A stretch of DNA of 64,000 nt, from contig CAZUFC010000022.1 in the NCBI GenBank assembly GCA_964619725.1, forward strand, positions 1-64,000, written 5' to 3'. A program made the translations under genes and the position numbers. Under the pieces are notes generated by a model. That model searched no databases and was not told where the DNA came from. It saw nothing but the letters and a program-made list of their open reading frames with translations. Each line of letters begins with the position of its first letter. Position 1 is the first letter of the stretch. This DNA comes from an uncultured bacterium (GTDB taxonomy: Bacteria; CSSED10-310; CAZUFC01). Shown piece after piece: positions 25,983 to 58,800 of this stretch.

Positions 25983-27359
25983 TTAATCATCGCTGTAGGA
26001 AAATTCTACGGACGAGACGTTGCTGACCAGAGCTGTTCCCCTTTCGTTGGTTAGTCCTGCGTGAAAGCAGAGATTTTCTGCATTTCCTGATCCGGGAGGC
26101 CACATGAATTCGAGTATGTTTTCCGAGAGGGACTGGTTCGGCGTCAGCGTCCTTTGCATCCAGACGGCTTCGGTATGCCAGGAAGGATGAAAAAAGATGG
26201 TTCCGTATACGTCCAGGAGTATGAACTGCAGAACGGTTCTGGGTTGGATGTCATTAATCAGAGAGAAACGGAGCCGGAAAAGACTGTATGGTTTGAAGTG
26301 ATTATCATTGAGCATGAGGTTTACGCGGGGTCCGTTTGGAGTAGGTGAAGGGATAAAGGTTGGGGAAGGAACAAAAGTGGCGGTAGGCGGTGAAGGAGGA
26401 GAGGAAGGTGAGGGTACGGGCGTGCAGAAAGGAGTCGGACTGAGAAACGCTGTGGGCGTCAGAGACGGCGTTGGCGAGACGTTCACTTGAAAAGCTTTCA
26501 TCACAGCCATGTGTTGCATGCCCTGGACGTGCGAATCGCCGTACTGAATGGGGTAAACTTCATCCAAAGGAGTATAAACCCAACTGTCGAACACCAGGCC
26601 GTTTTCGAATATGTTCGACTCGATGATCAAGTCTGTGTGAACGGAGTCGAATGAATCGTTTGGAATCACCCAATCATAATGTTTCGTGCGTGGTTCGCTG
26701 GTGTTATGGTTGCCGTCCTGATCTTCCGGAATATGCTCGAAAACCGACAGAAATTCATCAAACAAGTCCAGGCATGATTCGGAATAAGTGGAAGTATTCA
26801 AATCGCCGCCTACGACAATATATTCTTCGGAGTTGAAATTGAGTTCGATCAAATTCTTGAGGACTGCCGTTTGATTATAACGCGTACCCGCATCCCCTGA
26901 TGATGCTTTCAGATGAACGCTGACTGCCTGAAGCTCAATGTCGCCCGGTATATCGATGATCGCCCATACGAAATCACGGTCGCTGACATAAGGGTCCTCC
27001 CACTCCCCATGCGAAAGAAAACGAAAACGGCTTACGATGCCGTTTGGAATCGATTCGCCGCCGCCTTCTACACAATAATGAAATTCGGGACCGAACGCTT
27101 CATCCACTAAATCACGTAGCGTCCCATCTTCATAGTTGAATTCCTGGATAAGAACAATGTCAGGCTCCAATCCCTGAAAAATCCGAATCCCCTCATCCTC
27201 ATAAGCCTGATGGTCGCCGCTTGTGATGTTAGCACTCATAATTCGTATGACCTGCTCTTCATTAACGGCAAGCGAATCCCCGGCGGAAAAAGGCGCTATG
27301 CCTGTCCCAATCAGAAAAACAAAAACAGTTGATACTGTGACATTTTTGATGAATCTCAT
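25983..27359 (-). CDS. Secreted endonuclease/exonuclease/phosphatase (EEP) with Pro/Thr linker and shared C-terminal domain
   Basis: Signal peptide, IMSANI, DIVLIQE, SVHLK, GGDLN, YDWV, DSH..QH.AV; PT-rich linker; C-terminal domain homologous to those at 43221-43607 and 55884-56226. Confidence 0.88.
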   Translation of the reverse strand: MRFIKNVTVSTVFVFLIGTGIAPFSAGDSLAVNEEQVIRIMSANITSGDHQAYEDEGIRIFQGLEPDIVLIQEFNYEDGTLRDLVDEAFGPEFHYCVEGGGESIPNGIVSRFRFLSHGEWEDPYVSDRDFVWAIIDIPGDIELQAVSVHLKASSGDAGTRYNQTAVLKNLIELNFNSEEYIVVGGDLNTSTYSESCLDLFDEFLSVFEHIPEDQDGNHNTSEPRTKHYDWVIPNDSFDSVHTDLIIESNIFENGLVFDSWVYTPLDEVYPIQYGDSHVQGMQHMAVMKAFQVNVSPTPSLTPTAFLSPTPFCTPVPSPSSPPSPPTATFVPSPTFIPSPTPNGPRVNLMLNDNHFKPYSLFRLRFSLINDIQPRTVLQFILLDVYGTIFFHPSWHTEAVWMQRTLTPNQSLSENILEFMWPPGSGNAENLCFHAGLTNERGTALVSNVSSVEFSYSDD

Positions 27360-27640
27360 TTTTTCTCCAAAATATATTTGTATTTCAGGCGCTGAATGCG
27401 CCCCCCTTTTAATTCTATTTTATACGGAACCTTTTCGCAAAAATTTATTTTGACCAAGCCCGAAGACAGACGATAATCATCTCTACCCTCGGCCGAAAAA
27501 AAACAAAATTCAACTGGCAATTAAACCCTCCCTTCGGTCTTTGATGTCCTTTGCGTCCCTTTCCATGATCTAAAAAAAACATTGATCAAAAATGCGTATT
27601 TTGGAGTTACAATTCTTCCGAATATCCCAGCATTTTGTTT

Positions 27641-27676
27641 CGATTGCGATTTCGATCCCGATACCTACCCCGATTA
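27641..27676. repeat. Degenerate CGATNN hexamer array (related array on the opposite strand at about 46787-46810)
   Basis: CGATTG CGATTT CGATCC CGATAC CTACCC CGATTA. Confidence 0.5.
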
Positions 27677-27872
27677 GAGAAACAAAATGTCAAAAACTTT
27701 GAAAGAAGCGTAACCCCGGTATGATCAGTCCCCAAAAAATAAAAGGCTTATCCGGCCTCACAAAAATTAGTTTCCTGCTTCACGAAAGGGAGGAAATGCG
27801 GCGTTTCGAACTTGAAACTTTCTTTTCAAAGTCGTTATACTGTCGTGAGCATGCGTATTCGGAGGGCATCTG

Positions 27873-28700: not shown

Positions 28701-28703
28701 AAC

Positions 28704-38147: not shown

Positions 38148-41100
38148 CTATTCATCAATAACGAACTGAACATACGGCTCCTCATCATTCTGCTTTAATG
38201 TCCGCAATTTTTCGTTCACCTTTTCGGCATATTGAGGAAAGCGGTCCGGGTCGTTCAGATTCCAGGATTTTATGACCTTGATGCAATCGGCCCTTACGCC
38301 CCAATCCTCATGTTCCAGCAGCGACAATAAGCTGAATTTAAGTCTCACGGCGGCATCGACCGGCTCCGTCAGTTGAAGGATTCTCAGAAGCGAGCGCAGC
38401 ATCCTGGTATTGAGTTCATCATATTGGCTCAGTTCTGATTGGATCAGGGGAAAATATGGTTCGAAGTTCTCAGCGACAAGTGAACAAACGGCCTCACGAA
38501 CGCTAACCAGCGGATAATCCATCAAAGGGCGCAACTCTCGCCAGTAGGAATTTTGCGACTGAGCGAGTTTTTCTGCAGCGGATAAAATAAAGTGTTCGGA
38601 ATCGGATTCCTTCATAAGGTCGATAATTTTTTCATCGCCGACCCGGGAATTCAACTGTCCGAGGACTCGAACGGTCTGCCGCCGGAACTTTTCATCATCC
38701 AGAAGTTTCACGGCTTCGTCTTCCAGTTCTTTTATTTTCAGAACCCCTGCAAGGAAGAGTGCGCTGCTTTTGGCGGCCTGGTCGTCCTTTTCGAGTTTCC
38801 GTTTGAGCATTTTCCGTATTCGCTGGGGATATTTTTCATAGAGTTTCTTAAAGATGTCCTGGTGCGCGCGCATGGCGAGAGAACTGTTATCCGAGAGCTT
38901 ATTTTCGATCAGAGGGAGTATCTTTTTACCTGCCCGGACTATTTTATTTCTTGCTGCGGGAACGATGATTCTGTTGTCTCCGACTTCCCAGCGGCAAGCC
39001 AGGGACCAGAGTTCATCAAAGGTTTCCTGATCGATGGGGCTTTTTTGGGAGAGTATTTCCGGCATATTGACGGTTTGTTCCGGCTTTTCCTGTGCGATAT
39101 CCGTCTGTGGTTTTTCAGCCGGTTTTTCATCAGCCACATCCCATCCGACGCCGAACCGGTAATGAGACCACAATTTACCGTCATCCATGATGCCCAGGTA
39201 GGCATCCTGACCCTGCGTATCGATCAGGACGCCGATGCTTAAGGTACCGCGGGCAGGTCTTCCGTAATTGATGCCGCCCTCTTTTTTTCCAGCATATACA
39301 TCATCGCCGCTTCTGTCGAAGAAGAGACCGACGGCGTTTGTGAGACCGGAACCGTTGCAGCTTGTAGAGCCCAGGTAACGATCATGCCCTTCGCGATCAT
39401 GCAGAACGCTCGCCGCCCAGTCATGGCTGCCGCCTTGTCCCAATCCGTTGTGCATGATGTAGGAATCGCTTCCGGCCGCATCGATAAGTCCGCCCACGGC
39501 CAGATGAATGCCGCTGCCCTGGCCGTATTGAGTCATCTCATAAACGTCGTTGCCGCTGCGGTCACACAGCAGGCCAGCGCCGTACCAGTATCCAACGCCC
39601 TGGTTGTATATATCGCCCAGGTATCGATCATTGCCTTCTCCGTCTACAAGCAGAGCGATCCCACCGCCGTGATCGACCCCTCTGTCGCCTATGGAGAATC
39701 CCTGTGAAAAACTCTGATAACGGTCTGAAAAAAGAGGCGCATGGAGATATACTCCGCCGGCCTGATAAAGTTCATTTCCGCGCCTGTTTTCACAAACGGC
39801 GACGGAACGCATGCGAGCAAAAGCCTGGGCGGAACTCCAGGCCCTGTAAACGTCATTGTCGTAATTCGCTATACTTGCCGGATCAGGCGTTTCCTTATCT
39901 GCAGGAATATCGGGAGGACTCAAAAGAGCATCATCAATCATTATTCCGATGCCGTATGCCGCAGCTCCCTGAACATAAACTTTTCCCTCATAGACATCAC
40001 TGCCGCCGTCGTCATAAAAGGAGGCTATTCCGCAGGCCGCTGCACCCATTCCGAAGCTGCCGCAAAAGTAACGGTCATTACCGCCGCCCAGATCGTAAAA
40101 TGCAGCAACGCCCAGAAGCGCCGCTCCCAAAGTTACGTCCACATCACGGCAATCATAAATATCATCGCCGCCCAGGTCCGCAAAATAACCCCAACGCCGG
40201 TCTTTCGTGCCCCACGCTCCTCCTATCCGGCAACCCCTGTAAACATCGTCGCCGCCCGGATCGATCAAAAGCGCATAATTACCCTCCCATAAGTCGTTAT
40301 GAATAGTGCCGATTCCTATGCGGCCTTTATCCGTGTGGATTATCACCGGAGCCTCCGAAGGAAAACAGCTCGCCGGCAAATCCTTCAACCATATTGCGGG
40401 ATCAGGCATGCTGCTGAAATAAATCTTCAGCAGTTCGATCAAAGACACATCTGCAGCTTTCTGCTGAAGATAATCATCCTCCATGTTTTCCAGTTCCTTC
40501 TCCCAGCGTTCCTGCTCCTCTTTCCCGTACGGAGAATCGATCGCCTCACGCCAGGATGCCAGGAAAGGAATATATTCACGCAACATGGGAGACCAGCCGG
40601 AAAAGTTTATACTGTAAGCTTCATCCATCAAAACCCGACAGCTTGCCGTCAGTTCCCCCAAATTAGCTGGTTTCTCCGGTAGCGCGAGTCCTTCTTCGGG
40701 TATAGCGGAGTTGAGAAAAAGACCGGTATCGTCGTCGGCATCAAGATCAGGCAATAATGATGCGGCAATGCGGATATGCTCCGATGGCGATAAAGCTGGT
40801 CCTTCAGCAGACATCATACTGTCCGCAAGCGAATCAGTAAAAGGAGCTATATTCAATGGATTTGCCAGCATGTCCTTTACGACCGGCAATGCAAAATGCC
40901 CATGAGCATTGTCTTTATCAAAATTCATGTCCTCCCGTTCAAGATTCGCCGCTTTCAAGGCCTTATCCAGCGCATGAAGTTCCTTTTCCGTATAAGTCCG
41001 TGAAAATTGCTTTTTCGCATCAAGCTCCGGCGCTCCCGCAAGAATTCTTGCTTCAGGCGATTCTTTCTGTGATGTTTGAGCAGATGAGAAAGGCAAACCG

Positions 41101-44024: not shown

Positions 44025-44690
44025 ATGAAATATTTCTATTGTTTATTGATCCTCGTCATCGCAGTTCAAACGGCATCAGGCAAAGAGCCGCAGGAAAAAG
44101 AAATATGGTATGTGAGTCCTGAATTCGATAAACTGAAACCTGATACGGTGGCGGTATTGCCGATGGACAATTTATCGTTCGAGCCTGAAACTGCGGCCAT
44201 GCTTCGGGAAGAGGTATACGAAAGACTTCAGCAGAAGGGTTACAGAAAAATAAAAACCGAGCTGGTGGATCAGGCTATGAAGGAATTAGGAATACAAACG
44301 GCCGGGCAATTATCGGGCATATCGCCTGAAAAACTGGGCCAAAAGACAAAAAGCGATGCCATTATCGCGGGCCAGGTCGATCAATCGGCAGCGGTTCATT
44401 CCGGAGTATATGACGCTTTTACGGTCGTGGTTTCATTACGGTTGATCCATTGTGATACGGGAAAGCTTCTCTGGAAAACGGAACAATGGAGGAGCGCTCA
44501 CCGTCAATGGCAGGGAGACCCGATAAACCTCCTGATAAACTTTATTCATCATGAAAAGGCAGACAGGAGAAAACAAACGGCCTGGCTGGTGCAGGAGATG
44601 CTGAAAACATTACCGGATGGGAAAATTCACATTGACGAGGATAATCTCCTGGAGCAGGCGATTGAAATTCAAGCGGAGGAGAGTCCATGA
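44025..44690 (+). CDS. DUF799/GNA1162-like exported protein
   Basis: Signal peptide, PDTVAVLPMDN, KGY, SDAIIAGQV, LIHCDTGKLLW. Confidence 0.7.
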   Translation: MKYFYCLLILVIAVQTASGKEPQEKEIWYVSPEFDKLKPDTVAVLPMDNLSFEPETAAMLREEVYERLQQKGYRKIKTELVDQAMKELGIQTAGQLSGISPEKLGQKTKSDAIIAGQVDQSAAVHSGVYDAFTVVVSLRLIHCDTGKLLWKTEQWRSAHRQWQGDPINLLINFIHHEKADRRKQTAWLVQEMLKTLPDGKIHIDEDNLLEQAIEIQAEESP

Positions 44691-45361
44691 CAAAATATTA
44701 TCGTGCGATGCTGTTTCTATTGGCGATTACATTGGCGGCGGGTTGCGCAACAACCCGGGAACCGGTCGCTGAAAATCAAACGGATGAATTGCCGCCTTTG
44801 CCTGCGCCGCCCGAACAAAGGCCGCTTATCGCCATAGCCGGTTTCCAGAATAAAAGCGCTTATGCCGCCGACAAATTGTGGGAAACTTCGGCGGAAATGC
44901 TTATGAGTCGATTGATTCGGGCAGGATATTTTCGAGTGGTTGAATGGGAGCGGATGAAGCAATTGTTCGATCGGGAGGCGTTAAGTACATGCAGCCTGGT
45001 CTATGACCGCAGTCAGATGACGGAAGCCCAGAAAATATTGCTGTGTGAGTATTTTTTATCAGGGGCAGTGACCCGCTTCGACGTCAGTCAAACCGGTAAA
45101 GTGAGCGCCATGAAGAAGGTGAAGCATTTCACCACCACGGTGCGCATTGATCTTCTTCTGCAGAACGCTCGCACAGGCGAATACATTGGAACCGGCATAG
45201 GCCGCGCAACGGAAGAACAGGAGTTCCGTGGAGGTATGAGCGGCGGCACTACGGGAACCTGGGACCCCGCCTCGGCAAATGAAGCCCTGGAAAAGGCTAT
45301 TGCTGCCGGAGTCAATGAACTCATAATTAATTACGATCTTAATCGGAGGGCGGCTCAATGA
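44687..45361 (+). CDS. CsgG/HfaB-family lipoprotein
   Basis: Lipobox LAAGC, IAIAGFQN, FRVVE, SGAVTRFD, VRIDL..QNARTGE. Confidence 0.75.
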   Translation: MTKYYRAMLFLLAITLAAGCATTREPVAENQTDELPPLPAPPEQRPLIAIAGFQNKSAYAADKLWETSAEMLMSRLIRAGYFRVVEWERMKQLFDREALSTCSLVYDRSQMTEAQKILLCEYFLSGAVTRFDVSQTGKVSAMKKVKHFTTTVRIDLLLQNARTGEYIGTGIGRATEEQEFRGGMSGGTTGTWDPASANEALEKAIAAGVNELIINYDLNRRAAQ

Positions 45362-46647
45362 TTCGAGGACCATACTTCCATCACGTCAATCGATTTAAAA
45401 AAGCCTGCAGAAAGGTTATATGTCATACATCGATTATAATATTCCTGGCATTATACGCTTTGCCGGCAAAAGGACAAACAGAAGATTCCGAACTCATAGC
45501 CATACAAAAATCCGGACAAAGCCGCATTGCTTCCGGGGACCTGAGCCGGGCCAGGTTGGATGCCGTTCGCGAGGCATACAAGGATGCCGTGGGTGAAGGA
45601 GCGGGCGAAGATATCGGGGAATTGTTGCTCTTTCAGAACCTGAAACGGCTTACTGAGATAATAGTTACGCGTTCCCCGGGCTTTGTTAATAATTACCTGG
45701 TGGTTGATGAAGGCCCCACACGAGAAAACATGGATATTTACCAGGTAGCGATTAAGGCCGATGTCGCTTCCAGAACGCTTTCCAGGAAACCCGCCGAACC
45801 CGGACTGAAAAAATATGTGGAATTGCTGGAGAATCCCAAAATACTGGTGATGCTGCCGGAAGTTGACCTGGACGAAGATACGCAGACAACGTATGAACGC
45901 TCCTTCGAATCCGGCGGTACATCCTTCAGGTCCACAGAAGCAGCCGCAGCCAGAGCTTTCGCCGAACTGGGCTACCAGGTTGGTACATCGGACGATCTTC
46001 TCGCCAATGAAACTATAACGTCCGAAATGCTCGAACAAGCCAAATCGGGCGTGTCCGCTCAAGCAGTAAAAGTAGCCAAAGCTGTAGATGCCGATATCCT
46101 CCTTACAGGAGTCATCAGGACTAAAACGGAAAAGATGGATGTCAATAATGTGCCGCTGTTTATGACCAATGCGGAACTTTCAGCCAAAGCCGTCATTATT
46201 TCCTCAGGAAAAACAGCCGGCGCCTATCACTTTACGGAAAGAGCATCATTCCCGGAAAAAACAAAATCCCGCTCAGACTGCCTGGATAATCTGGCCGACA
46301 AGATAGCCGCAGACCTGATATGGAAAATCCCGGCCATACTGGCTTATGAACTGAGAGAAACCGCTCTGAAAATCTCGAACATAAGCAAGATTCAAACCCT
46401 GGATATAAAAGATGCACTGAAAAAACTGCCGGGCATTGAAAAAGTTACAATTACAACCTTCCCCGATAAAACCAATAATCGAGCCGAATTCATAATCGCA
46501 ACCGCATACCTGCGCCTACCCAACGAGGACCTCCTCCAGCAATGCAAACTGGCCCTGAATTATCCCCTGGAAACCGTCAACGCCGATAAATACGAGATAA
46601 ATTGTAAATTGCCCGAAGGAGAGTCCCAAAAAGCTATCGATTTATAA
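45358..46647 (+). CDS. Exported protein with FlgT N-terminal-like domain
   Basis: Signal-like N-terminus, ARLDAVREA, GFVNNY, YQVAIKADV, PKILVM, DADILLTG. Confidence 0.55.
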   Translation: MIRGPYFHHVNRFKKACRKVICHTSIIIFLALYALPAKGQTEDSELIAIQKSGQSRIASGDLSRARLDAVREAYKDAVGEGAGEDIGELLLFQNLKRLTEIIVTRSPGFVNNYLVVDEGPTRENMDIYQVAIKADVASRTLSRKPAEPGLKKYVELLENPKILVMLPEVDLDEDTQTTYERSFESGGTSFRSTEAAAARAFAELGYQVGTSDDLLANETITSEMLEQAKSGVSAQAVKVAKAVDADILLTGVIRTKTEKMDVNNVPLFMTNAELSAKAVIISSGKTAGAYHFTERASFPEKTKSRSDCLDNLADKIAADLIWKIPAILAYELRETALKISNISKIQTLDIKDALKKLPGIEKVTITTFPDKTNNRAEFIIATAYLRLPNEDLLQQCKLALNYPLETVNADKYEINCKLPEGESQKAIDL

Positions 46648-46976: not shown

Positions 46977-48242
46977 TTAAGTACGAAGCGCTTCAGCGGC
47001 GTTAAGTTTAGCGGCGCGTATGGAAGGCGCTATTCCGGCTGCGATGCCGACGCTGACTGCGGTAATTACCGCAACGGCAGCGGCTGTCGCCGTTGTTGCC
47101 GTGATAATATTGAAATAGCGCTCGATGAATTCCGCAGCCGCTGTTCCCAGGAAGAATCCTGAAACCGCGCCCGCCATTGAAATGAAGATCGCTTCCAGCA
47201 GGAATTGAAGCAATATCTGATTCCGTGAAGCGCCGGCGGCCCTCCTTATTCCGATTTCACGGGTTCTTTCCGAAACGTTGGCGTACATTATGTTCATAAT
47301 ACCTATACCTCCGACCAGCAATGATATTCCGGTAATGCAGCCCAACACTATATTGAATGTCCGGCGAGCTCTGGCGGCTTGCTGCATGAGCTCCTGCGGG
47401 ATTATTATTTGGAAGCCGTCCCGTTGCCGGCGGGCGTTGCTTAAAATGCGACGGACTACATCGGCCGCTTTGGAAATATCCGTTGACGCAGGAAACTTGA
47501 GAACGATCTGGTTGAGGGCAGGGCGGTCATTATCAACTGTTTTCATTCCTGCGGAGGGAGCAGAACCGATTGGTATTATGATGGTCCGATTTAAATCGCG
47601 AATGCTTACCGGACCTGCTTTTCCGGTATTTATCTTCCTGGTGTCCAGTACGCCCACTATCTTGAAAAGTTCATTTCCTATCTGAATATATTCCCCGGGT
47701 TTACCTTCGGGACCCAGTTCTTCACATACTTCACATCCAATAACCGCTATCCCGGCGCTTTCGACTATATCAGTCCTGCAGATGAATCGCCCGCTTTTTA
47801 CACTCAGTTCTTTTGTCTTTCCGTAATCATCATTAACCGCTATTATTTCAGCTTTCATCGTCAGTGCGGGCGTCAACGCTTGAACATCTATGATGCCGGC
47901 GGCGGCTTCCACGTTCAACCCGGCCTTTAATCGCTCTATATCCGAAAAGAGGAGCGTATCTTTCCAGGTATTGTCTGCGGAATCAGTATCAGAATAACCG
48001 GATTTTATTATTAAATTATGCGCTCCCAGTTCTTCGATCTGACTGATTACCTGCTTTTTCAGTCCTTCGGCTACCGAAGTCATGGCGATCAGAGATGCGA
48101 CGCCGAAAATTATGCCGAATGTGCTCAAAACGCTGCGCAGACGATTGGAAAGGAGCGAACGGTAGGCAGCTTTAGTAATTTTCCAGGCGATCAGGCAGTA
48201 ATGTATGAGTTTGTTATCTTCTTTCATTTTCTGCCGGCTCAT
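46977..48242 (-). CDS. MacB/FtsX-family ABC permease
   Basis: RSVLSTFGIIFGV, ISLLVGGIGIMNIM, ERTREIGIRRAAGA. Confidence 0.92.
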   Translation of the reverse strand: MSRQKMKEDNKLIHYCLIAWKITKAAYRSLLSNRLRSVLSTFGIIFGVASLIAMTSVAEGLKKQVISQIEELGAHNLIIKSGYSDTDSADNTWKDTLLFSDIERLKAGLNVEAAAGIIDVQALTPALTMKAEIIAVNDDYGKTKELSVKSGRFICRTDIVESAGIAVIGCEVCEELGPEGKPGEYIQIGNELFKIVGVLDTRKINTGKAGPVSIRDLNRTIIIPIGSAPSAGMKTVDNDRPALNQIVLKFPASTDISKAADVVRRILSNARRQRDGFQIIIPQELMQQAARARRTFNIVLGCITGISLLVGGIGIMNIMYANVSERTREIGIRRAAGASRNQILLQFLLEAIFISMAGAVSGFFLGTAAAEFIERYFNIITATTATAAAVAVITAVSVGIAAGIAPSIRAAKLNAAEALRT

Positions 48243-48395
48243 AATGAATCAGTATTGTGATTTGGAGTTTGTGCCTGATGGAAAGGGCGGCATTTATCGC
48301 TGCCCCCGCCTGATCATCCCGTTTTTTAGAATGCACGGTTTTACCTCTGTTTTATTCAGTAGCTGAATCCGGCCTCATTAGCCATTTTTTCCGTA

Positions 48396-49118
48396 TCATT
48401 TCCATTTTCCGTCGAGCAAATGACGAATGTTATGAGCTGCAGACGCAATGGAGACGTCGTGAGTAACCAGGACGATTGTGTGACCGCCGGCGTTTAGTTC
48501 CTGAAAAATCTTCAGTATCGTCTGTCCTGAAGCAGTGTCCAGGTTGCCTGTCGGTTCGTCCGCCAGGAGCAACTCCGGTTGCATCACCAGGGCTCTGGCC
48601 AGCGCTATGCGTTGCTGTTCGCCGCCGGAAAGTTCTGTCGCCTTGTGACGTTTTCTGTTCATCAGCCCCACTTTTTCCAGAGCCTGATCGACTCTGCGTT
48701 CAGCTTCCCGCTGCCTTATGGAACTATAACAAAAGGGCATGGCTACGTTTTCTGCGGCGCTCAGATATGAGATCAGGTGAAAGGACTGAAATACGAAACC
48801 TATGGTGTGAAGTCTCAGCGCCGAGATTTCCTGGTCGGTCATTCTTTCAATCGACGTTTTTCCGAAAAATATTCGCCCAGAAGTAGGCCTGTCCAGGATG
48901 CCGATAAGGTTCAACAGGGTTGATTTTCCCGATCCTGATGCGCCCATTACGGCCAGGAAATCGCCGCGGCGGATTATAAGGTTAATATCGGACAGAGCGT
49001 GCACAGCCTCGACGCCCCTTTTGAACATGCGTGAAACGTTTTCTAATTTAACCAGCCAATCTTTATGCGTGTCCATTCCGCAAATTCTCTCCGGGCGCAG
49101 CGTTAACCGTCGATCCAT
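48396..49118 (-). CDS. MacB/LolD-type ABC ATPase
   Basis: [35 protein letters not shown]; true start may be the MDTHKD Met. Confidence 0.95.
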
Positions 49119-50551
49119 TCTTCGGGTTGGAATAAGCAGACTGATTCGCCTTCTCGAAGGCCCGAAAGTATCTCCATCCAGTCTTCATTACGTCTGTCGG
49201 TTTCTATTCCGCGGCGCACATAACCTGCGTCGGTTTTTATGAAACAGTAAGGCGTCTCATCAAAATAAAAAACGGCATGCACGGGAATAATCAATGCATT
49301 CAGAATCTTATCACAGAGAATATCGACCTGAACTGTCATGCCGGGTCTCAAGCGCTCATCAATTTCATCCAGCGCTATACGGACCCGAAAATACCTGGCG
49401 CCCCTCGATACTAAATTTTCCTTTTCAGCCAGCGCCCCTATAGAATCTATCCTGCCGGAAAAGACCATATCGGGAAAAGCTTCCGCTTTTACTGCCGATT
49501 TAATCCCTATCCTGATTTTGTGCAGATCGATTTCCCTTACTCTTGTGGTTACGGCCAGCGAAGAAATATCGGGCAAGTAGATTATCGGCTGACCCATAAA
49601 TACGGTATCGCCCACATGAGGCTTTCTTACTGAACCTCCTTTATAATTCTCTTTCAGTATGGCCAATCCGCTGTGAGGAGCGTGAATTATTGTCTTTTCC
49701 AGGTCGGTTTGAGCCTGCTCGAGGTCCTTTTTCATCTCCGCTAATTCGAACAAAGCTTTATTCAATGCGTTTTCTGATGTGGCTGACTTATAGGCTGATT
49801 CTGATTTTACCTGTTCCAGATTCGATTGGGCCTTTTTGTGATTGGCTTCTGCAGCTTCTAACCTTGCAGGCGTTTGATATTCGTTGAAATTTTTAAATCG
49901 TACTCTGAGTTCATTGTAGGCGCTCTCGGATTCCGCTGCTTTCTTCTCCGCATTTTCTATCTCCAGAGGATGCGAAAAACCTCTTTCCGCCAATTCCTCC
50001 AAATCATTTACGTATCCCTCTGCATTTAACCACTCCTCCTCCGCAGCTTTCATTTCCTTCTCCAATTGCGATTTTTCCATCGGCAAATCGCCGAGTTTTA
50101 TCCTTTTATATTCCAACTCAGCTATTCTCAGGGCAGATTCCGCAGTTTCAATATTGCGTAAAGCCTGCTCCTTGTCCCAGGCCAGGGACTTTTTCAAACT
50201 TTCTACTATAGATTCCTGTTCACGAATTCTCGATTGAAGGCGTTCCACTTCCTGCTCAAAGACAACCGGGTCCAGCCGGGCCAGAACATCCCCTTTTTCA
50301 ACAGCCGCTCCGTCTTCGATTATATATATGAGCTTCCCGTCGTTACCCTTTATTTGCGAACCGATATACGTCGCTTTTTCTGCTTCAAGCTGACCGATTG
50401 TTCTGAGCCTTATCTCAAAATTACCTGTTTTCGCTTTCGCAAATTTTATCTCCGATTCCTCTGTCTGCACCCCAGGTCGGATATGCCATAAAAGTAAAAC
50501 AGCCAATAAAAAAATAAAGAGAATACCGACAGACTTAAACGGACGAATCAC
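49103..50551 (-). CDS. MacA/HlyD-family periplasmic adaptor
   Basis: N-terminal TM, VEKGDVLARLD, long coiled coil, IHAPHSG, LRPGMT, ILSGLREGE. Confidence 0.92.
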   Translation of the reverse strand: MIRPFKSVGILFIFLLAVLLLWHIRPGVQTEESEIKFAKAKTGNFEIRLRTIGQLEAEKATYIGSQIKGNDGKLIYIIEDGAAVEKGDVLARLDPVVFEQEVERLQSRIREQESIVESLKKSLAWDKEQALRNIETAESALRIAELEYKRIKLGDLPMEKSQLEKEMKAAEEEWLNAEGYVNDLEELAERGFSHPLEIENAEKKAAESESAYNELRVRFKNFNEYQTPARLEAAEANHKKAQSNLEQVKSESAYKSATSENALNKALFELAEMKKDLEQAQTDLEKTIIHAPHSGLAILKENYKGGSVRKPHVGDTVFMGQPIIYLPDISSLAVTTRVREIDLHKIRIGIKSAVKAEAFPDMVFSGRIDSIGALAEKENLVSRGARYFRVRIALDEIDERLRPGMTVQVDILCDKILNALIIPVHAVFYFDETPYCFIKTDAGYVRRGIETDRRNEDWMEILSGLREGESVCLFQPEEWIDG

Positions 50552-50563
50552 AGCATCAACCTC

Positions 50564-52039
50564 TTACCCGTCATTATCCGGCGTTTGGGCTTGAAAATCC
50601 GGCGTCTTCAGCAGCGTTCCCATGGCAGCCTGAAGACGGACCTTTCCGCCGGCAAAGTTTATTTTTTCCTGTATCATGTTGGATTCAGCGAGTCTCAGTT
50701 CATTTTCACTTTCCAAAACAGTAAAATTATCGATCATTCCCCGGGCGAATTTCACCTGGGACAGCTCAAGTTTACCCCGAGTCTGCATAATTAATTCAGA
50801 CAGCAATTTGATCCGCGCCCGGCTGCGTTCCAATGCACGCAATACCTGTTTAACCTCACGGCGAATCTCCAGCTTTGCTTCTTCCAACGCCAGTTCACTC
50901 TGCTTGACTCGCAGCGCCGCCTGGCGGAAAGCAATTTTTTCCGCGCTCCTGGAAAAATCAGACCCGGAGCGCAATCCAAGACTCCAGGATTCCTCATCCG
51001 GTTTAAGTTCATCGTTGAATTTTTCAGCATCCCCGGAAAGAGTATAATCCGCCGTCAAATTGAGGACAGGCTGAACCCTTAATTCCGCCAGATGCTTTAG
51101 ACGCTGCGCCTCTTTCATATTTTCCCGGGCTTCCTTTATTTCGATCCTTCTTTGGAGAGCTGTATTGACGGCATGTTCGAGAGAGGGCAACTCCAGGGCG
51201 TTTTCGATTGCCATTTTTAATCGCAGGTTCTGTTCAAGCGGCAACGATAAAATATTTTTCAGGCTGTCTAATGCAGCTTCGTATTGTTCCTGTGATGATT
51301 GCAGTTGATTTTCTGTATTTTTCCGTTCTATTTCGGCGCGGTAGAGGTCCATTGCGCCGGTATGTCCCAATTTCATTTTTGCACCGAGAGCGGCTGTATG
51401 AGTTCTTATTCTTGTTAACGATTCTTCGAGGAGACGGGTTGTTTCGCGCCACTTAACGGCCTGATAGGCTGTATTTAAGGCCGTCTGGATCATAGTGACC
51501 TGTGTCCGGAAATGCTGCATTCTGGTTCGCAAAAAATTGGACTCGGCCCCCTTAACATTAGAAAGAGCGGATTCTTTTCCTCTGCCCTGAAGCAGCGGTT
51601 GATCGATGCTTACGGTTAAACGGGAGGAGTAATTTCCTTCGGTTTTTCCTAAGGAAGGCGAAACACTGATGTCGCCGCCTGCGATCATTTGTTTTCTCAG
51701 ACTGAAACCGGAATTCCAGTCGAATTGAACCTCATCCTCTTCGTTGTTCGTTCCTGAAAGACCCATGTCTATTTCGGGGTACAACTTAATATTTAAATCG
51801 TTGCGCGACTGCTGCAATTGAAGTTGAGCGATTTCAACCCTGTCAGCGGCAAACTCAATATTCCGGTTGAATTTTAAAACGCGATTGATGATGCCCTGTT
51901 CATCAAGAATAACAGGAGCTGGAGCAGGGTCATCGGAAGCAGCGTTTTTGGGAACGATGCAGATCACTGCCGCAAGCGACAGGTAGAAAACGATTATTCC
52001 AGCGGTTTGGGAACGGATTCGGTCAAATGACATTATCAA
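50564..52039 (-). CDS. TolC-family outer membrane efflux protein
   Basis: Signal peptide, two OEP repeats (QPLLQG, KFARG), operon with MFP and ABC genes. Confidence 0.88.
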   Translation of the reverse strand: MIMSFDRIRSQTAGIIVFYLSLAAVICIVPKNAASDDPAPAPVILDEQGIINRVLKFNRNIEFAADRVEIAQLQLQQSRNDLNIKLYPEIDMGLSGTNNEEDEVQFDWNSGFSLRKQMIAGGDISVSPSLGKTEGNYSSRLTVSIDQPLLQGRGKESALSNVKGAESNFLRTRMQHFRTQVTMIQTALNTAYQAVKWRETTRLLEESLTRIRTHTAALGAKMKLGHTGAMDLYRAEIERKNTENQLQSSQEQYEAALDSLKNILSLPLEQNLRLKMAIENALELPSLEHAVNTALQRRIEIKEARENMKEAQRLKHLAELRVQPVLNLTADYTLSGDAEKFNDELKPDEESWSLGLRSGSDFSRSAEKIAFRQAALRVKQSELALEEAKLEIRREVKQVLRALERSRARIKLLSELIMQTRGKLELSQVKFARGMIDNFTVLESENELRLAESNMIQEKINFAGGKVRLQAAMGTLLKTPDFQAQTPDNDG

Positions 52040-52061: not shown

Positions 52062-53354
52062 TTACCTCCGCGGAGAGGATTCCACTTGGCCTTGAACGTT
52101 TAAATTAATAGTATCAGCATTCGGGGGTTTGTCGTAATTACCGGTCAGGTTGATGGTAACGGAGCCGGTTACGTAATTGCCCTGCTCATCGTAGCCGAAA
52201 ATTTCAAACACGGAATCGACAGGGATATAGGAATAGGCGTTGTAATAGACGTCGCCGCAGACTCGATCCTTTGCCGGTATATAGGATTTCCCTGCTCCGC
52301 ACTCATCGAACCATTCAGCGAAGTAATCAGGATCGACGTAGGCATAATTGAACTGGTAGCCTTCGTGGTATTGGGTGAACTGGGCATATTCGATATCCAC
52401 TCTGCTGCCGCCTGTTTCTTCGACATAAACAGTGGTTATCCAGTAATAAAGACCGTCGATATAATTGTAATAAGGGCAGGGATTGGGATCAGCCCATACC
52501 CGAAAACTGCCGACGTTGTCTTCCTCCTCCTCGTCTTCATCTTTTGTCGCTTCGTATGCGGCATAACCGCCTCCGGCGATGACCGCGCCGCCGACGATGT
52601 AGAGCCAGGGGCTGGCCCACAATCCTGCTGACGCACCAGCGCCGGCTCCTGCCGAACCTCCGCCTGCACCTGCTGCAGAGCCTGCTTCTGCTGCTGCGAC
52701 AGACTTGCCGGTAGATGCCGCCGTTATCTGACCGCCGTTTACCGCTCCCACAGAAGCGGTCGACGAACCGATTTGAGACGCCGTGTAAATACCACCGGCG
52801 ACAGCGCCGAAACGCATACCCGATTCAACGGCGTTCAGAGCTATGCTGTCTGCGAAGCCGGCGACTTCTGCCGGAGGCTGAGACAGCTCCGTGAAAACGT
52901 CAACCTCTCCATAGACGTCGCAATCCTGCCATGGAGGAATCTCAGCCTCTTTGCTTTCGTTGACGATGAAGCTCTGCGTTTTGACGACGACTTTATCCCC
53001 GTTCACAGCCAGGAATAAATATTCGATTTTTTCGGTAGCGTCTGCCGGCGCTGGAATGACGCCTTGATACTGATCGCTCTTCATTTCAAGCATATTAACG
53101 AAACAGAAATCCGCGTGATCGCTGCCCTTGAAATAGCAGCGAACCAGTTCAATGCCGGAAGGGTCGGCAGCGACGGCGGATACGTTAATACGGCATCCGG
53201 GAACATAATACTCCAGTGAATCATGTTGTATAGCCGTTTGCGGAGATGCCTCTGCTGCTGATACGCTTGATACGCCTTCTCCCGGACTCAGCGCCGTGAT
53301 TAAAATAAACAGTAACGCCGGCATGAATCTCAGAGTATTCCTTCCGTTGATCAT
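52062..53354 (-). CDS. Exported hypothetical protein with Ig-like N-domain, Gly/Ala linker, internal hydrophobic helix and acidic spacer
   Basis: Signal peptide; DPSGIELVRCYF..YQGVIPAP..IEY; LWASPWLYIVGGAVIAGGGYAA followed by DEDEEEED. Confidence 0.75.
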   Translation of the reverse strand: MINGRNTLRFMPALLFILITALSPGEGVSSVSAAEASPQTAIQHDSLEYYVPGCRINVSAVAADPSGIELVRCYFKGSDHADFCFVNMLEMKSDQYQGVIPAPADATEKIEYLFLAVNGDKVVVKTQSFIVNESKEAEIPPWQDCDVYGEVDVFTELSQPPAEVAGFADSIALNAVESGMRFGAVAGGIYTASQIGSSTASVGAVNGGQITAASTGKSVAAAEAGSAAGAGGGSAGAGAGASAGLWASPWLYIVGGAVIAGGGYAAYEATKDEDEEEEDNVGSFRVWADPNPCPYYNYIDGLYYWITTVYVEETGGSRVDIEYAQFTQYHEGYQFNYAYVDPDYFAEWFDECGAGKSYIPAKDRVCGDVYYNAYSYIPVDSVFEIFGYDEQGNYVTGSVTINLTGNYDKPPNADTINLNVQGQVESSPRR

Positions 53355-53374
53355 AGTTCTCTCCTTTTTAATGA

Positions 53375-55249
53375 TTAATTGCGTTTGCCTAACGTGACTT
53401 TCGCTTCATAAAGCCTGCCCAACCGATAAACAGTAAGCGCTGCCTTCTGGCCGGGACTTTTCCGTTGCAGGACGGAGCCGGCTTCCCGAGCATCGTTGAT
53501 TTTCCTGCCGTCTATGGAAGTCAGTATATCGCCCCCCCGCAGTCCTGCCGCATCCGCCGGGCCGCCGCTAACGACAGATACTATTCGTACTCCTCTCAAA
53601 GAACCCAAACCCAGTTGCCGGGCTTCATATTCGGTTACTGTTTCTATGCTTGCTCCAAACCATCCGCCCGACGCCGGAGGAATAACAGTTGCAACCCTCT
53701 CAAGTTTCACTGCAGGAGTCGCTGTGGGACTGGGCGGCGGGACGGTCGTCCGTGTATTCGTCGGTGACGGGGAAGGTGCAACCGATTCGTATTTATGATC
53801 AAGCGGTTTGATCAATGCAGAAGTTTCAGTCCCGTCAATGTTTCGCTTATCCGGGCCGGCGTCCTCATTATCATCCCCGTCGCTCGGCTCTCCGGCAAGA
53901 AGGGCTGCTTCATCCTGCAGCGCATCCTCCGAAGTCCCATCGTCATTCTCCGCCTTCTCAATCGGAACCGCAACGCCTGCCGCCCCTTCAACAGATAAAC
54001 TTTCCTTCTCAGTCAGGGAAATTGAATTTGCCTGCGATTCCCGATCTCCGTCCGGTGAAGGCTTTTCTGCTTTGAACAGACCGTACCAGCCCAGGATTGC
54101 AATTATCAGAACAACTGCCGCTGCGATTAACGGAGTTTTGTATGACCTGGAGTCGGAAATCTTCAGTCCCTTAACCATTTTCGACGCTGAAAGCGATTCT
54201 GAGGATTCCAACTTCCCCTTCTCCGGCGTTTCTTTTTTTTCGCTTACAGGCTTTTGGGCTAAAGTGGGAAGTTCATCATGAGGCTGATCTGTTTCAGCTT
54301 TATATAGATGATGCGTCTTCTGGTCACCGGTTGAGAAAACGGACGTTGTATCCTCTCGTCCATCGCCGGCGCTTGTGTTTAATACGCCTATCAGAGCATT
54401 ACGAACCTCCGTCATGTTCGTGAAACGCTTGTCACGCTCACGTTCGAGCATCTTCCCTACCGTATCGGTCAACTCCCGCGAGAATTCTACGTCGACTCTC
54501 ATCTCCCGTATGTCCGGGACCTGCTCCCTGATTCTTAAAGCTAATGACTCTATTTTGCTTGCGGACGAGAAAGGAAATTTGCCCGTCAGCGCCCTGAACA
54601 ATACCAGTCCCAGGGAATATTGATCGGTCCTGTGATCAATAGCCGCTCCTTTTGCCTGTTCAGGCGAACAATAATCTATTTTTCCAATGAATAATCCTGT
54701 CGATGTCTTCTCATCCGCATCCGAAGCAGCGAATCGGTCCGTTATCTCAGCCTTCGCTATCCCGAAATCGATTACCTTCGCCAAAGGACTGCCCAGACGA
54801 TCTTTACGAGTCGTCAGCATTATATTGTCAGGAGAAATGTCCCTGTGGATGATACCGTGACTATGAGCATGTATCAAACCGTCGCAAACCTGAATGATAA
54901 TCGGAAGAATTTCCTGCGCCGACATGATCCTGGCCCGGCGCAATCGAACAGATAAACTCTCCCCCACCAGAAATTCCATAACCAGCGCCAGATGCCGGCC
55001 CTCTTTGAAAAATTCGTAAACCCGCACCAGATTCGAGTGATCCAGCCGGGCCAGTATGCGGGCTTCCCGCTCAAAACGCTTTACAAAATCGCTATCCTGC
55101 GAAATATCGCTTTTCAATATCTTGAGCGCACGAGTCGCCCCCAATAATCGATGCTCAGCCTTAAATACCGCTCCCATTCCCCCCTCGCCGATTATAGAAT
55201 CGATACGGTATTCTCTTATCCAACTTCCTATGAATTCATGCAACTCCAT
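53375..55249 (-). CDS. Membrane Ser/Thr protein kinase with C-terminal PDZ domain
   Basis: IGEGGMGAV, HRDISPDN, DFG, YCSPE; TM LIAAAVVLIIAILGW; HtrA-like PDZ GWFGASI..GGPADAAGLRGGDILTSIDG. Confidence 0.92.
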   Translation of the reverse strand: MELHEFIGSWIREYRIDSIIGEGGMGAVFKAEHRLLGATRALKILKSDISQDSDFVKRFEREARILARLDHSNLVRVYEFFKEGRHLALVMEFLVGESLSVRLRRARIMSAQEILPIIIQVCDGLIHAHSHGIIHRDISPDNIMLTTRKDRLGSPLAKVIDFGIAKAEITDRFAASDADEKTSTGLFIGKIDYCSPEQAKGAAIDHRTDQYSLGLVLFRALTGKFPFSSASKIESLALRIREQVPDIREMRVDVEFSRELTDTVGKMLERERDKRFTNMTEVRNALIGVLNTSAGDGREDTTSVFSTGDQKTHHLYKAETDQPHDELPTLAQKPVSEKKETPEKGKLESSESLSASKMVKGLKISDSRSYKTPLIAAAVVLIIAILGWYGLFKAEKPSPDGDRESQANSISLTEKESLSVEGAAGVAVPIEKAENDDGTSEDALQDEAALLAGEPSDGDDNEDAGPDKRNIDGTETSALIKPLDHKYESVAPSPSPTNTRTTVPPPSPTATPAVKLERVATVIPPASGGWFGASIETVTEYEARQLGLGSLRGVRIVSVVSGGPADAAGLRGGDILTSIDGRKINDAREAGSVLQRKSPGQKAALTVYRLGRLYEAKVTLGKRN

Positions 55250-55622: not shown

Positions 55623-55768
55623 CCAAGCATCCAGAAAGGGGTCAGAGCCCTGCGGAAACCCTTGAATTTAAAAGGCAGAGCCCGGGGCAATCAGCATCCG
55701 CCATTCAGCTCCAAGCATTCAGAAAGGGGTCAGAGCCCTGCGGGAACCCTTGAATTTAAAGGACAGAG
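55623..55768. repeat. Two ~58-bp direct repeats (period 88 bp) containing GGGGTCAGAGCCCT
   Basis: 55623-55680 and 55711-55768: CCAAGCATYCAGAAAGGGGTCAGAGCCCTGCGGRAACCCTTGAATTTAAA. Confidence 0.9.
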
Positions 55769-55818
55769 ATTAGAATCTCCGACATCCGATATCCCTTGAT
55801 AAGCCTCCGGAACATCAT

Positions 55819-55854
55819 AAAAAAGGATCGTTTCCGGCAGAAACGATCCTTTTT
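55819..55854 (-). terminator. Intrinsic (potentially bidirectional) terminator after the C25 protease gene
   Basis: AAAAAGGATCGTTTC-CGGCA-GAAACGATCCTTTTT. Confidence 0.85.
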
Positions 55855-55883
55855 ACTCAAACAGTTTTTATTTCAAACTTCGA

Positions 55884-58800
55884 TTATTCGTAACCCCAAT
55901 CAAGGACTGATATGTCGGTCATGAGGTTCCATTGATTATCCACTAGGGCTCCCCAGAACTTAAGACCATATGCTGTTCCGGCATTGGTCGGCCAGACGAA
56001 TTCGAGTATGACTTCCGTGTTGTCGCAGTAGGCTGGAATTTCTTTGACGACCCAGTCGATATCCGTGGACCAGCTTTCGTAGAACCAGTAATTGTCATAG
56101 ACGTCAAGTATTACGAATTGGTTGAAGGTAACGGCTTCGTGGGGATTGACTATGCGGCATTCCAGGAGAAAGGGGTCTTCGGCGTGGAACATTTCCTGGT
56201 TGATCATCAGTTTCATTTCCAGGGAGGTTGGAGTTGGCGAGCAGACGGCGGTAGGCGTGCCGGTCGTGTGAGCGGTGGGCGTACCGGTAACGAACCAGGT
56301 GGGGATTTCGGTAGGGATATGGGTGGGCGTATCAGTAGGAGTATATGTAGGCGGAACATCCGTGGGCGTTTGAGTGGGCGTGCATGTCGGCGTCAGCGTG
56401 GGCGGAATTTGCGTCGGAGTTCTGGTAGGTGTGCAGGAGGGAATGAGCGTCGGGGTCCCGGTTGGAGTATAAGTCGGCGGTATGGGAGTCTGGAATGGCG
56501 TAGCAGTCGGTGCGGTTCCTCCTGTTCCGGACAGCCACCGGGCAGTGTTGACTATCAGATGTTCTTTATCCGTCTGGTTTTGAACGTCGCCTATGGTGAA
56601 AGAATAGAAGACGGTTTGACCTCCGTTCCAGGGATCGGTATCGTCATCGTATGCGATGACTCCGCCTCCATTGGCTGACGTCCATCCGAAAATTGTCGTC
56701 GCGTCAATTGCAGCATCGCAGGCATCTTCATCATAATAACTGGAATAGGTATGGGAAATTGTCGACGGCAATGAATAAGGAGTCATAACTATAGGATGAT
56801 CTGACGCCTCAAGAGAAAGGTCACCGGAGCTGTCGCCGTTCCAGTCCGTGACGTGACAGACATCTTCCAGAAAATCGGGCGCGCTGTAATAAAAGTCGTA
56901 GCATATCTCGCCGCCTTCGATCAAAAGCGTCCCTCCATCACCGACATAAGCCGTCAGGTTATCTCGCCAACCAGCCTGACTGACCGGCGAAGAGTTATCG
57001 CCGGAACTCCAGACGATGAACGCGTAGTTGTCCCAATAAGCCGGATCGGTTGATGATGCGGTTTCTTCAGTAACAAGGAAACCATTACCGGCTAGAGTAT
57101 CAACGAAACTTTGGGTGTGCTGGTGTGTTCCGTCTGCGATGACCAGGACGGGTTGAGCGCCTATGCCGACAGTAAAATTGACGGTATCAGAGAAACCTTC
57201 TGTTTCGACAAACATCGAAAATTCAACCATTTCACCCTCCGGCGCATCAGGATCGACATAAAACCCGAAATCGTCCGTGCTCCACTCCATCTGCTCGTAT
57301 TCCAAGTCCGGCCAGGAAGCTGAATTATCCGTGATATCGATGTAAATAGAATCCGTGCTCAATTCTGCATAAGGAGCCGGAGCGATTCCGTGTCCGGTGT
57401 TCAGCAGGGATACGGGCAGCACGATGTTTTCGCCCGGGTCTGCAATGCCGTCGTCGTTTCCGGAGGAATCGTCTACGAGATGGTCCTGGTATGACAGTGC
57501 GGGAGCGGTTATCATTTCATTGAAATTAGCGTTCCCTGAACCCTCAACGCTGGTCCAGGCCAAGGAGAATTGAATCGACTCGCCGTCGGGCGCAGAAGCA
57601 TCGATTTGCCACTGTAAATGAGGTTGATCGGATTCAGCGCTTGTGTGAGCGGGCATATCAGGAAAGGTCAAGTCAGCATTGATAAGCGTTACGTAATCGC
57701 TGTTTTCTGAAACAGTGACGTTTATTCCCGCAGCATCTATACCTGAGTTGTTATAAAGCGTTATAGGACAAGTGATCGTTTCGCCGGGATTGGGTTCGCC
57801 GTTGTCGTTGCCGGAAGAATCATCTATAACATGCGATTCATGGATCAGGATGGGAACATCGCATGGACCTAAATAACCCACTTCCACGTCGTCGATATTC
57901 CATCCGCAATAGGTCCATCCTGAGTCCGTTGGTCCCATTGTCCACCTCACGTAAACTTCAGGTTGGCCGTCTGCCCATTCGGAAATGTCGTATTCGCAAT
58001 AAAGCCATTCGCCGTCATATATAGTCGAAGAATTGTGCCAGACTTCCTCAAATGTCGTGCCGTCGACTGAAACTGAAATAACGGCATGGTCATAAACTGG
58101 TTGTTCGACGCCCAACCACCGGTAAAATCTGAGGGTAGTTCCAGCGGCTGCCGAGCAGTCCATGACCGGAGCTGTGAGATGGTATTCGCCCATTGAATTC
58201 GTATAGTCGCCGTTGAGGTTATAGCCGTAGACATTGTCTCCGGTATATCCGGAAGTGGGGTCCGGGCCGCCGTAATCACCGCCCTGTCCTGTTGGAATGC
58301 CCCATTCCCAATCGCCGCCGGAGATCGTCCAGCCCGGATTGGAGTCCATGTTTTCCTCAAAAAGCACGAAATTGCCCAGAGTATTGAAGAAGTAATATTC
58401 TCCGCTGTTGTCGTCCGTCGCCGTATTTTCAGCAAGATCGGTCGATTCCACATAAAAATAGTATTTTGAACAGTTTTCCAGTCCTTCCAGTTTGATGGAA
58501 TGTTCCATACTGTATTCTGAACATGAAACGGACTGGACAGGAGGCGTATCGAACCCGTAGAAGACTGTGGCAGTGGCGAGTTCGTCCGTGGTCCAGGTTA
58601 TGACGGCTTCAGTATCGAGAACGCCGCTGAATCCGACTCCGCTGATCGCCGGCTCCTGGCAATCGACTGTAACGTCTTCGTAAACGTCTACCGGTGAGCC
58701 TTCGCAATCGTCATCATGGTAATAGGCAGTCACATCGTCACCATGCGCGACCAGAAGGTCGCCGCTCCCGCCTGAAGCAAAAAGCTCGAACTGTCCTTCG

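Follow-up and report, generated by a model that had tools for sequence, protein, structure and literature searches.

A large, unannotated C-terminal domain family of candidate phylum CSSED10-310 as a possible localisation module of exported proteins

Why should a nuclease, a protein of no recognizable family and a gingipain-like peptidase end in the same domain? The question is raised by a stretch of DNA from an uncultured bacterium of the candidate phylum CSSED10-310 (positions 1 to 64,000 of contig CAZUFC010000022.1, assembly GCA_964619725.1; these 64,000 nucleotides are called ‘the window’ throughout), in which three genes encode proteins that share a terminal domain, here called the tail, behind a linker rich in proline and threonine (PT linker). 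A sequence-only reading made before our analysis had taken the tail to be either a lineage-specific targeting tag, read by some secretion or attachment machine, or a module binding the cell surface. We find that the tail is a real, large, unannotated and phylum-restricted family, lying outside every family that we tested, and that it most likely decides where its carriers end up outside the cell.

One terminal domain on three unrelated proteins

The window is part of a contig (C22) of a source assembly of 9.17 Mb and 344 contigs that is 90.9% complete and 6.5% contaminated. One of its three carrier genes (25983–27359, − strand) encodes a secreted EEP-family nuclease/phosphatase of 458 amino acids (aa), in which a signal peptide (a hydrophobic N-terminus, as read off the translation) is followed by an Exo_endo_phos body (Pfam PF03372, aa 60–189, E 8e-7), by a linker at aa 294–344 that is 71% proline, threonine and serine (P/T/S; 26328–26480, −) and by the tail at aa 345–458 (25986–26327, −). 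This copy scores E 8.8e-59 with a profile made from the three window copies, 1.6e-35 with a 32-sequence alignment (A2) and 1.6e-32 with an iterated hidden Markov model (HMM). The C25 (gingipain-family) peptidase gene (55884–61190, −) encodes 1768 aa laid out as signal peptide, Propeptide_C25, Peptidase_C25, C25 Ig, further beta-rich regions, a PT linker of about 100 aa (aa 1555–1656, 64% P/T/S; 56223–56528, −) and the tail (aa 1657–1768; 55887–56222, −; profile E 1.4e-60), the copy used for the structure model below. A protein of the sequence library (P0004, 1746 aa) is 100% identical to this peptidase and starts at its M23 (nt 61124).

The remaining carrier is a gene split into two in-frame pieces (41514–43607, +) by a TAG at 42252–42254: an N-terminal half of 246 aa with a signal-peptide-like start, and a C-terminal half, a 450-aa open frame without signal peptide, that bears a PT linker (43161–43229, +; 74% P/T/S) and the tail (43230–43604, +; E 1.9e-49 with the three-copy profile and 4.1e-33 with the iterated one). 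The TAG may be an assembly error, a strain variant, a pseudogene mutation or a read-through codon. Single in-frame TGA or TAG codons were also seen within several tail matches of relatives. In alignment A2 this copy represents a long subtype with an extra ‘YSPPxxSxxID’ loop and a ‘WPDTG’ motif. The body of the split protein has no Pfam or NCBIfam family in library scans, and its N-terminal half has no homologue among the 13 other genomes of the phylum.

The three bodies are thus unrelated, as the sequence-only reading had it: Pfam scans return Exo_endo_phos, no family at all, and the three C25-associated families, respectively. The tails, by contrast, belong together. BLASTP aligns the EEP and C25 copies at E = 8e-22 and the TAG-split and C25 copies at E = 6e-9; it gives no alignment between the TAG-split and EEP copies, so that this pair is joined only via the family profile, which in its iterated form scores the three at E 5e-35, 2e-32 and 4e-33. 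Coordinates, BLASTP and profile therefore agree that all three proteins end in one domain of about 113 aa after a Pro/Thr linker, which was the starting observation of the earlier reading.

A numerous, mostly C-terminal family on exported proteins

For a survey of the source genome, every stop-to-stop frame of 60 aa or more was translated and the profile was iterated to convergence. The three-copy profile alone already found at least 150 further copies, at E-values of 1e-40 to 6e-16, and the iterated profile found 222 tail domains in 221 open reading frames (ORFs), each ORF but one having a single copy. The carriers lie on 123 of the 344 contigs (71 of the 103 that are 30 kb or longer); given this spread, the family does not come from a contaminant bin. 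An all-against-all comparison of the last 130 residues of 4330 ORFs put the tail first in size among C-terminal families, with a cluster of 206.

The tail sits at the very end of most carriers. For 210 of the 222 copies the distance to the stop is at most 10 aa, for four it is 11–30 aa and for eight more than 30 aa; of the 197 copies whose match extends to the last model position, 180 are followed by only 0–4 residues. The expected C-terminal placement was thus borne out for the large majority of copies, though not as the strict rule that had been envisaged. In the 40 aa upstream of the tail the median P/T/S content is 0.475, compared with 0.215 over whole carrier ORFs; P/T/S-rich linkers are typical of modular extracellular enzymes. 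Under a strict signal-peptide rule (a charged n-region, an uncharged hydrophobic core and small residues at −1 and −3), 170 of 208 5′-complete carriers have a signal-peptide-like start, the count among other ORFs of 300 aa or more being 1078 of 3371, whereas a looser score separated the two groups poorly (189 of 208 carriers vs 588 of 1000). Only eight carriers look like lipoproteins. Eighteen carrier ORFs do not exceed 300 aa. Most of these have neither N-terminal part nor signal peptide, and they have the look of genes split or cut short, as at the TAG in the window; a whole protein made of signal peptide and tail alone was not found among the 18.

What the tail is attached to varies widely. 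From a random sample of 40 carriers, one of which was the window C25 peptidase, the remaining 39 were scanned against Pfam (E ≤ 1e-4), and 26 of them contain Pfam families. These include peptidases of families S8, C25, C13, M28 and C1, as well as PAD_porph, GH57, GH114, right-handed beta-helix, CBM96, Kelch and other propellers, GSDH, metallophosphatase/5′-nucleotidase, transglutaminase-like and BNR/sortilin domains. No best-scoring Pfam stretch lies on the tail in any of the sampled carriers; the CARDB match in one of them (L062, aa 538–590) is outside it. The prediction of many copies that go together with signal peptides and a range of cargo was therefore well founded.

The tail also occurs away from the C-terminus, in at least five architectures in all. 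It directly follows the signal peptide in ORFs on contigs C153 and C40 and in the library proteins P0031 and P0101, and it is internal in ORFs on contigs C179, C104 and C112. P0031 and the C153 ORF are 40% identical over 422 aa, and the N-terminal layout has therefore been kept between species. Two of these ORFs (C153:3829–6570, −; C179:522–2942, +) appear, when their sequences are read by eye, to fuse the tail to domains like those of FGE-sulfatase (SUMF1-type) proteins, a superfamily that includes PorK/GldK, the ring lipoprotein of the type IX secretion system (T9SS).

Restriction to one candidate phylum

Among the 14 GTDB species genomes of CSSED10-310, 11 carry the tail, with 57, 67, 68, 81, 82, 86, 91 and 104 matches in eight of them and at least 150 in the other three, the source genome included. 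The profile search did not find it in three genomes that are 87–96% complete and belong to families f5–f7 in our numbering, so the tail is confined to four of the seven families of the phylum. A search of 1.84 billion library representatives gives 2470 matching proteins at E ≤ 1e-3 and 2104 at 1e-10; among the best 150 library matches, 146 of 152 domain matches end within 10 aa of the C-terminus, and where record titles of carriers name a source they name candidate division CSSED10-310. The lineage-specific character that had been suggested from three copies thus holds across the genomes of the phylum and the named carriers.

It was equally right to call the domain unannotated. Scans against Pfam and NCBIfam gave no family at E ≤ 1 on the three tails, whether searched alone or within the full proteins; the best profile match among PDB sequences has an E-value of 0.21; and the ESM Atlas returned only unnamed clusters of ‘hypothetical protein’ for the tail. 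T9SS type B C-terminal domains (CTDs) and FlgD_ig, which have models in Pfam/NCBIfam, gave no match on the tail in whole-library scans at E ≤ 1, FlgD_ig (PF13860) matching instead a homologue of the C25 peptidase (P0233). We found no description of the tail in the accessible portions of the literature on CSSED10-310 and on conserved C-terminal or sorting domains. Nor is it mentioned in the available part of the CSSED10-310 genome paper, in which the authors predict these organisms to be Gram-negative, possibly motile heterotrophs and place them beside Acidobacteriota (PMC8248873).

Fold and conserved residues

AlphaFold2, run on the C25 tail with alignment A2, predicts an eight-strand Ig-like beta-sandwich with high confidence (pLDDT 97.5, pTM 0.87). 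Foldseek against the PDB returned generic Ig-like neighbours only, at E-values of 3e-4 or above, namely RbmA (TM 0.67), RhoGDI and CARDB (3idu, TM 0.60), together with a porphyran-binding carbohydrate-binding module (CBM; 8wae, E 7e-4, TM 0.50). In a VIA-align comparison with 48,161 chains the top match was the N-domain of a GH66 dextranase (5axg, Z 10.5), followed at Z of about 8 by GH2 Ig domains, macroglobulin domains, CARDB and the carbohydrate-binding domain of Wzt (6o14, Z 8.2), values of a size that is frequent among unrelated sandwiches. The CARDB structure 3idu aligns over 96 residues (Z 8.0, rmsd 3.4), a likeness of fold class only. No T9SS tail stands in either list of neighbours, though a likeness to one may exist. 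The proposed structural check thus yielded a confident sandwich and none but generic relatives.

What the tail has in common with CARDB (PF07705), E-set Ig-like domains and CBMs is the fold class and an ‘N-P-G’ turn after strand B; it differs from them in giving no HMM match at E ≤ 1 and in sharing only 5–14% identity, and those domains also occur elsewhere than at C-termini and in more than one phylum. No Pfam CBM family matches the tail, and its fold likeness to 8wae and 6o14 is weak.

Over the 222 copies, which are 25–55% identical, the conserved columns (numbered by the C25 copy) are F21, N29, L42, Y/W/F48–51, P52, W54, F78, W80, P81, F92, F/W112 and Y/W114, with W54, W80, P81 and N29 near-invariant; the motif blocks that the sequence-only reading had picked out from three copies coincide with these most conserved columns. 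The domain ends in an aromatic-Gly-aromatic strand. From the predicted topology, N29 (BC loop), W51-P52-x-W54 (C′D) and W80-P81 (EF) would lie together at one pole of the sandwich, where both chain ends would be placed as well.

The C-terminal slot of C25 peptidases

We consider the most informative result to be what other C25 peptidases carry in the place of the tail. Nine of the best 120 homologues of the window C25 body carry the tail; they are the closest ones, and in eight of them it is C-terminal and in one internal. Elsewhere the same body ends in Dockerin_1 (P0157, 1103–1151 of 1170; P0181, 1351–1407 of 1409; P0194, 1352–1408 of 1410), in SLH (P0202, 1026–1068 of 1077) or, in Bacteroidota, in Por_Secre_tail (P0233, 1471–1546 of 1549; P0267, 1908–1963 of 1977), the last of these matching the T9SS tail of Bacteroidota gingipains to which the sequence-only reading had pointed.

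The slot has a further kind of occupant within the phylum itself. The tail-free CSSED10-310 genome G012 has 14 C25 peptidases, and in ten regions that we examined (nine from G012 and one from another genome of the phylum, G013) six C25 ORFs of G012 terminate in a VPxL-type motif followed by a membrane helix and a cluster of basic residues; the tail is on none of them. One of these six ends passes the IPTL_CTERM cut-off (24.9 bits vs 20.5). A G012 protein is 38% identical to the window C25 over 429 residues, the match ending (...WLSGTG) where the PT linker of the window protein starts. The source genome has both kinds of end: a C-terminal helix with a basic tail is present on 340 ORFs, with no overlap with the 221 tail-bearing ORFs, and a regular expression for [VI]P[AST][LMF], about 18 hydrophobic residues and a Lys/Arg cluster matches at least 109 ORFs, often after PT linkers, one of the 109 being a C25 paralogue on contig C1. 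Examples of such motif-helix-basic ends are C8:95371–114582 (6404 aa), C1:116473–121089, ORFs on C9 and C2, and the G012 loci L121–L127. None of a sample of 15 from the source genome passes an NCBIfam cut-off, and the source genome has one exosortase-family ORF (C134:13003–13455, −).

In this slot the C25 body thus holds dockerin, SLH, T9SS or IPTL-CTERM-like tails, and the slot has therefore been filled by localisation devices in evolution. This equivalence supports the view that the tail, too, is a probable localisation module.

The tail nonetheless differs from each of the devices whose place it takes. Like the T9SS type A CTD (PF18962/TIGR04183), it is a C-terminal Ig-like sandwich found once per protein on Sec-exported hydrolases and adhesin-like proteins, in tens to hundreds of copies per genome and in the same slot on C25 homologues, but the two show no sequence match, the new tail having about 113 aa and eight strands against some 75 model positions; it also has conserved N-terminal and internal copies, usually a long PT linker, and a genome in which T9SS core genes were not found. 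Dockerin (PF00404) and SLH (PF00395) modules resemble it as terminal, non-catalytic modules behind linkers that bring many enzymes to one receptor, mostly from the C-terminus and sometimes from the N-terminus, again in the same slot on C25 homologues. In fold they are unrelated to it, dockerins being small Ca-binding helical repeats and SLH modules being helical, while the tail (a 115-aa model) is all-beta. Neither dockerin nor, at E ≤ 1, SLH matches the tail (SLH does match P0202), no cohesin-like partner was identified, and Dockerin_1 has 11 matches in the source genome compared with 222 copies of the tail. IPTL-CTERM/PEP-CTERM ends, finally, alternate with the tail on paralogous and orthologous C25 peptidases of the phylum and like it often follow PT linkers, but they are membrane-anchor signals of about 30 aa, of the type that exosortases act on, whereas the tail is soluble, folded and without membrane helix.

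T9SS machinery and export routes

The sequence-only reading had expected the tail to be independent of T9SS. Our searches point the same way in part. SprA gave no match in the source genome (PF14349) or in any of the 14 genomes (TIGR04189), GldM (TIGR03517) had no match, and the classical T9SS tails TIGR04183 and PF18962 had none genome-wide, all of these being searches whose controls were silent (five of the six T9SS searches); the profile search for PorV (NF033710) had no match either. With five of six controls silent, the absence of T9SS core parts is likely but unproven.

On the other side of the ledger stand two signal-peptide-bearing C25 peptidases of about 1090 aa (C69:23988–27275; C70:1803–4955) that score 230 bits against the PorU model, below its cut-off of 420, with a match that covers the N-terminal and C25 parts of the model. 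Both proteins end in a C-terminal domain other than the tail (the ‘type 2’ module described below), and the neighbour of one of the two genes encodes a cytoplasmic-looking helical protein rather than a PorV-like barrel. Orthologues are present in five of the 11 tail-bearing genomes (the source genome, G001, G002, G004 and G010) and were not found in G003, G005, G007 and G008, which are 90–94% complete; with orthologues in only those five genomes, we rejected the PorU-like peptidases as a universal processing enzyme for the tail.

BamA is present in the source genome (536 bits), and GspD secretins score above cut-off in all 14 genomes of the phylum. Matches to the BamA family at or near the curated cut-off occur at C55:28031–30364, C72:39472–41361 and C1:73435–75279; these may be paralogues, or else stem from the 6.5% contamination.

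What the tail may do

The reading that we lean towards, tentatively, is that the tail is a self-folding localisation module common to the Sec-exported proteins of the lineage and acting by tethering after export, through a ligand shared on the cell's own surface or matrix. Carriers would cross the inner membrane by Sec and would leave the periplasm by a general route, possibly through the GspD secretins that every genome of the phylum encodes. The tail, on its flexible Pro/Thr linker, would then hold the enzyme non-covalently to one shared ligand, much in the logic of dockerin or SLH modules, and binding would go through the conserved pole of BC, C′D and EF loops with N29, W51-P52-x-W54 and W80-P81. 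We favour tethering over an export signal because N-terminal and internal copies occur, with one such layout kept between species, and because a binding module would be well served by linkers that are long and flexible and by a conserved pole of loops. Several of our results weigh against tethering, however. Copies away from the C-terminus are few, and three of the eight that lie more than 30 aa from the stop are only 31–34 aa away from it; the tight end of most copies (180 of 197 finish 0–4 residues short of the stop) would be compatible, too, with a signal dependent on a free C-terminus; the fold neighbours, being generic, carry no functional weight; the argument for a loop pole draws on strand order rather than coordinates, and the conserved tryptophans may be either exposed or buried; the GspD secretins are also present in the three tail-free genomes and therefore say nothing specific; and our analysis identified no ligand or receptor for the tail. 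The two-sided proposal of tag or binding module has accordingly stood in what the two sides share, an unannotated, lineage-specific and localisation-like domain; neither a machine nor a ligand having been found, it may be either of the two, with the rare but conserved N-terminal and internal copies tilting the balance to a binding module.

If the tail were instead an export or sorting signal, it would be read in the periplasm by an outer-membrane translocon, perhaps to be cleaved off as the cargo is attached to the surface. We regard this as possible, if somewhat unlikely. Such a signal would follow the logic of the T9SS CTD with different parts, and PorU-like C25 peptidases could be its processing enzymes in some lineages. 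Several observations speak for it: a C-terminal Ig-like sandwich that occurs once per protein and, in 180 of 197 copies, leaves only 0–4 aa to the stop, a cargo list (C25, PAD_porph, S8, M28, glycosidases, beta-helix) that resembles that of T9SS, Por_Secre_tail in the same slot on Bacteroidota C25 homologues, two PorU-like proteins at 230 bits, and an outer membrane, indicated by BamA, across which more than 200 exoproteins need a way. Yet SprA, PorV, GldM and the classical tails were not found (with five of six controls silent), the PorU-like orthologues are limited to five of the 11 tail-bearing genomes and have a different C-terminal domain of their own, and the N-terminal and internal copies are conserved between species. 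In its boldest form, which we think unlikely, the tail would be the address label of an undescribed outer-membrane export or surface-attachment pathway with more than 200 substrates per cell, sharing no core parts with T9SS and having arisen independently in a sister lineage of Acidobacteriota.

Two explanations dispense with a destination on the cell. That the tail is a CBM-type module binding some environmental polymer, substrate particle or mineral, and so keeping enzymes on their food, would be in keeping with a beta-sandwich that a PT linker precedes, with aromatic residues conserved in its loops, with a weak fold likeness to 8wae, 6o14 and the matrix protein RbmA and with a position that now and then varies. 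But a single substrate specificity is a poor fit for cargo that spans nucleases, at least five peptidase clans, a deiminase, dehydrogenases and glycosidases; CBMs often repeat and vary in position, whereas the tail is nearly always present once and at the extreme C-terminus; and its fold matches to such modules are no better than those to generic Ig-like domains, so that we hold this to be rather improbable. Least of all do we believe in a passive Ig-like domain that stabilises or spaces proteins without any part in targeting, and that domain shuffling has spread through a lineage with many multidomain exoproteins, despite the generic fold and the presence in the genome of other repeated Ig-like modules such as the type-2 domain: spacers do not usually keep to the final 115 residues, after a flexible linker, in more than 200 proteins that are unrelated, W54, W80, P81 and N29 would hardly be near-invariant over 222 paralogues that are 25–55% identical, and known localisation tails occupy the same slot.

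Time and again, terminal tails common to many proteins have opened the way to new sorting machines, as with sortases, exosortases and T9SS. Were the address-label explanation true, a new secretion or sorting system would recognise its substrates, in the manner of T9SS, by a folded Ig-like domain at the C-terminus. The tail, which marks about 3% of the phylum's long ORFs, defines an exoproteome in silico that comprises proteases, nucleases, glycosidases and adhesin-like proteins, and it gives annotators a new family model as well as a handle for finding the partner. The switching of the same protease bodies between the tail and an IPTL-CTERM-like membrane tail within one phylum amounts to a natural experiment on the re-routing of surface proteins.

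A second repeated module and the surroundings of the window genes

The type-2 module is a further unannotated domain of about 115 aa, with the motif YYDG.PTG..L.D.G..GD...GDG, of which the source genome has 52 copies in 32 ORFs. It occurs singly or in tandem, at or near the C-terminus (for example C69:23988–27275, C70:1803–4955, C93:18235–19668 and C85:32039–35533), on signal-peptide-bearing S8, FG-GAP, LTD, PKD, BNR and LVIVD proteins and on the two PorU-like peptidases, never on one ORF together with the tail. Its only matches to known families are weak ones to Big_7/DUF4625. At E ≤ 1e-20 it is found in genomes G000–G010 and in none of G011–G013. We considered that it might be a distant relative of the tail and rejected this (hhalign probability 0.3%); a complex prediction for the two domains, with type 2 as a candidate cohesin-like receptor of the tail, scored 0.00 and 0.00, which speaks neither for nor against binding.

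In the window, the three carrier genes are scattered among unrelated genes, with neighbours of xanthine-dehydrogenase type and of carbamate/ornithine metabolism, and form no dedicated operon. Two other ORFs, at 38148–41165 (−; 1005 aa) and 52062–53354 (−; 430 aa), have no Pfam family at E ≤ 1e-4. The regions 46977–52039 (−) and 53375–55249 (−) encode a MacAB-TolC-like efflux set (FtsX/MacB_PCD permease, ABC ATPase, HlyD-type adaptor and OEP) and an adjoining Ser/Thr kinase with C-terminal PDZ domains. Just 3′ of the split gene, 44025–46647 (+) encodes a GNA1162-like lipoprotein (PF05643), a CsgG-family protein (PF03783, the curli-channel family) and a 429-aa ORF without family, which together could be a small outer-membrane lipoprotein cluster.

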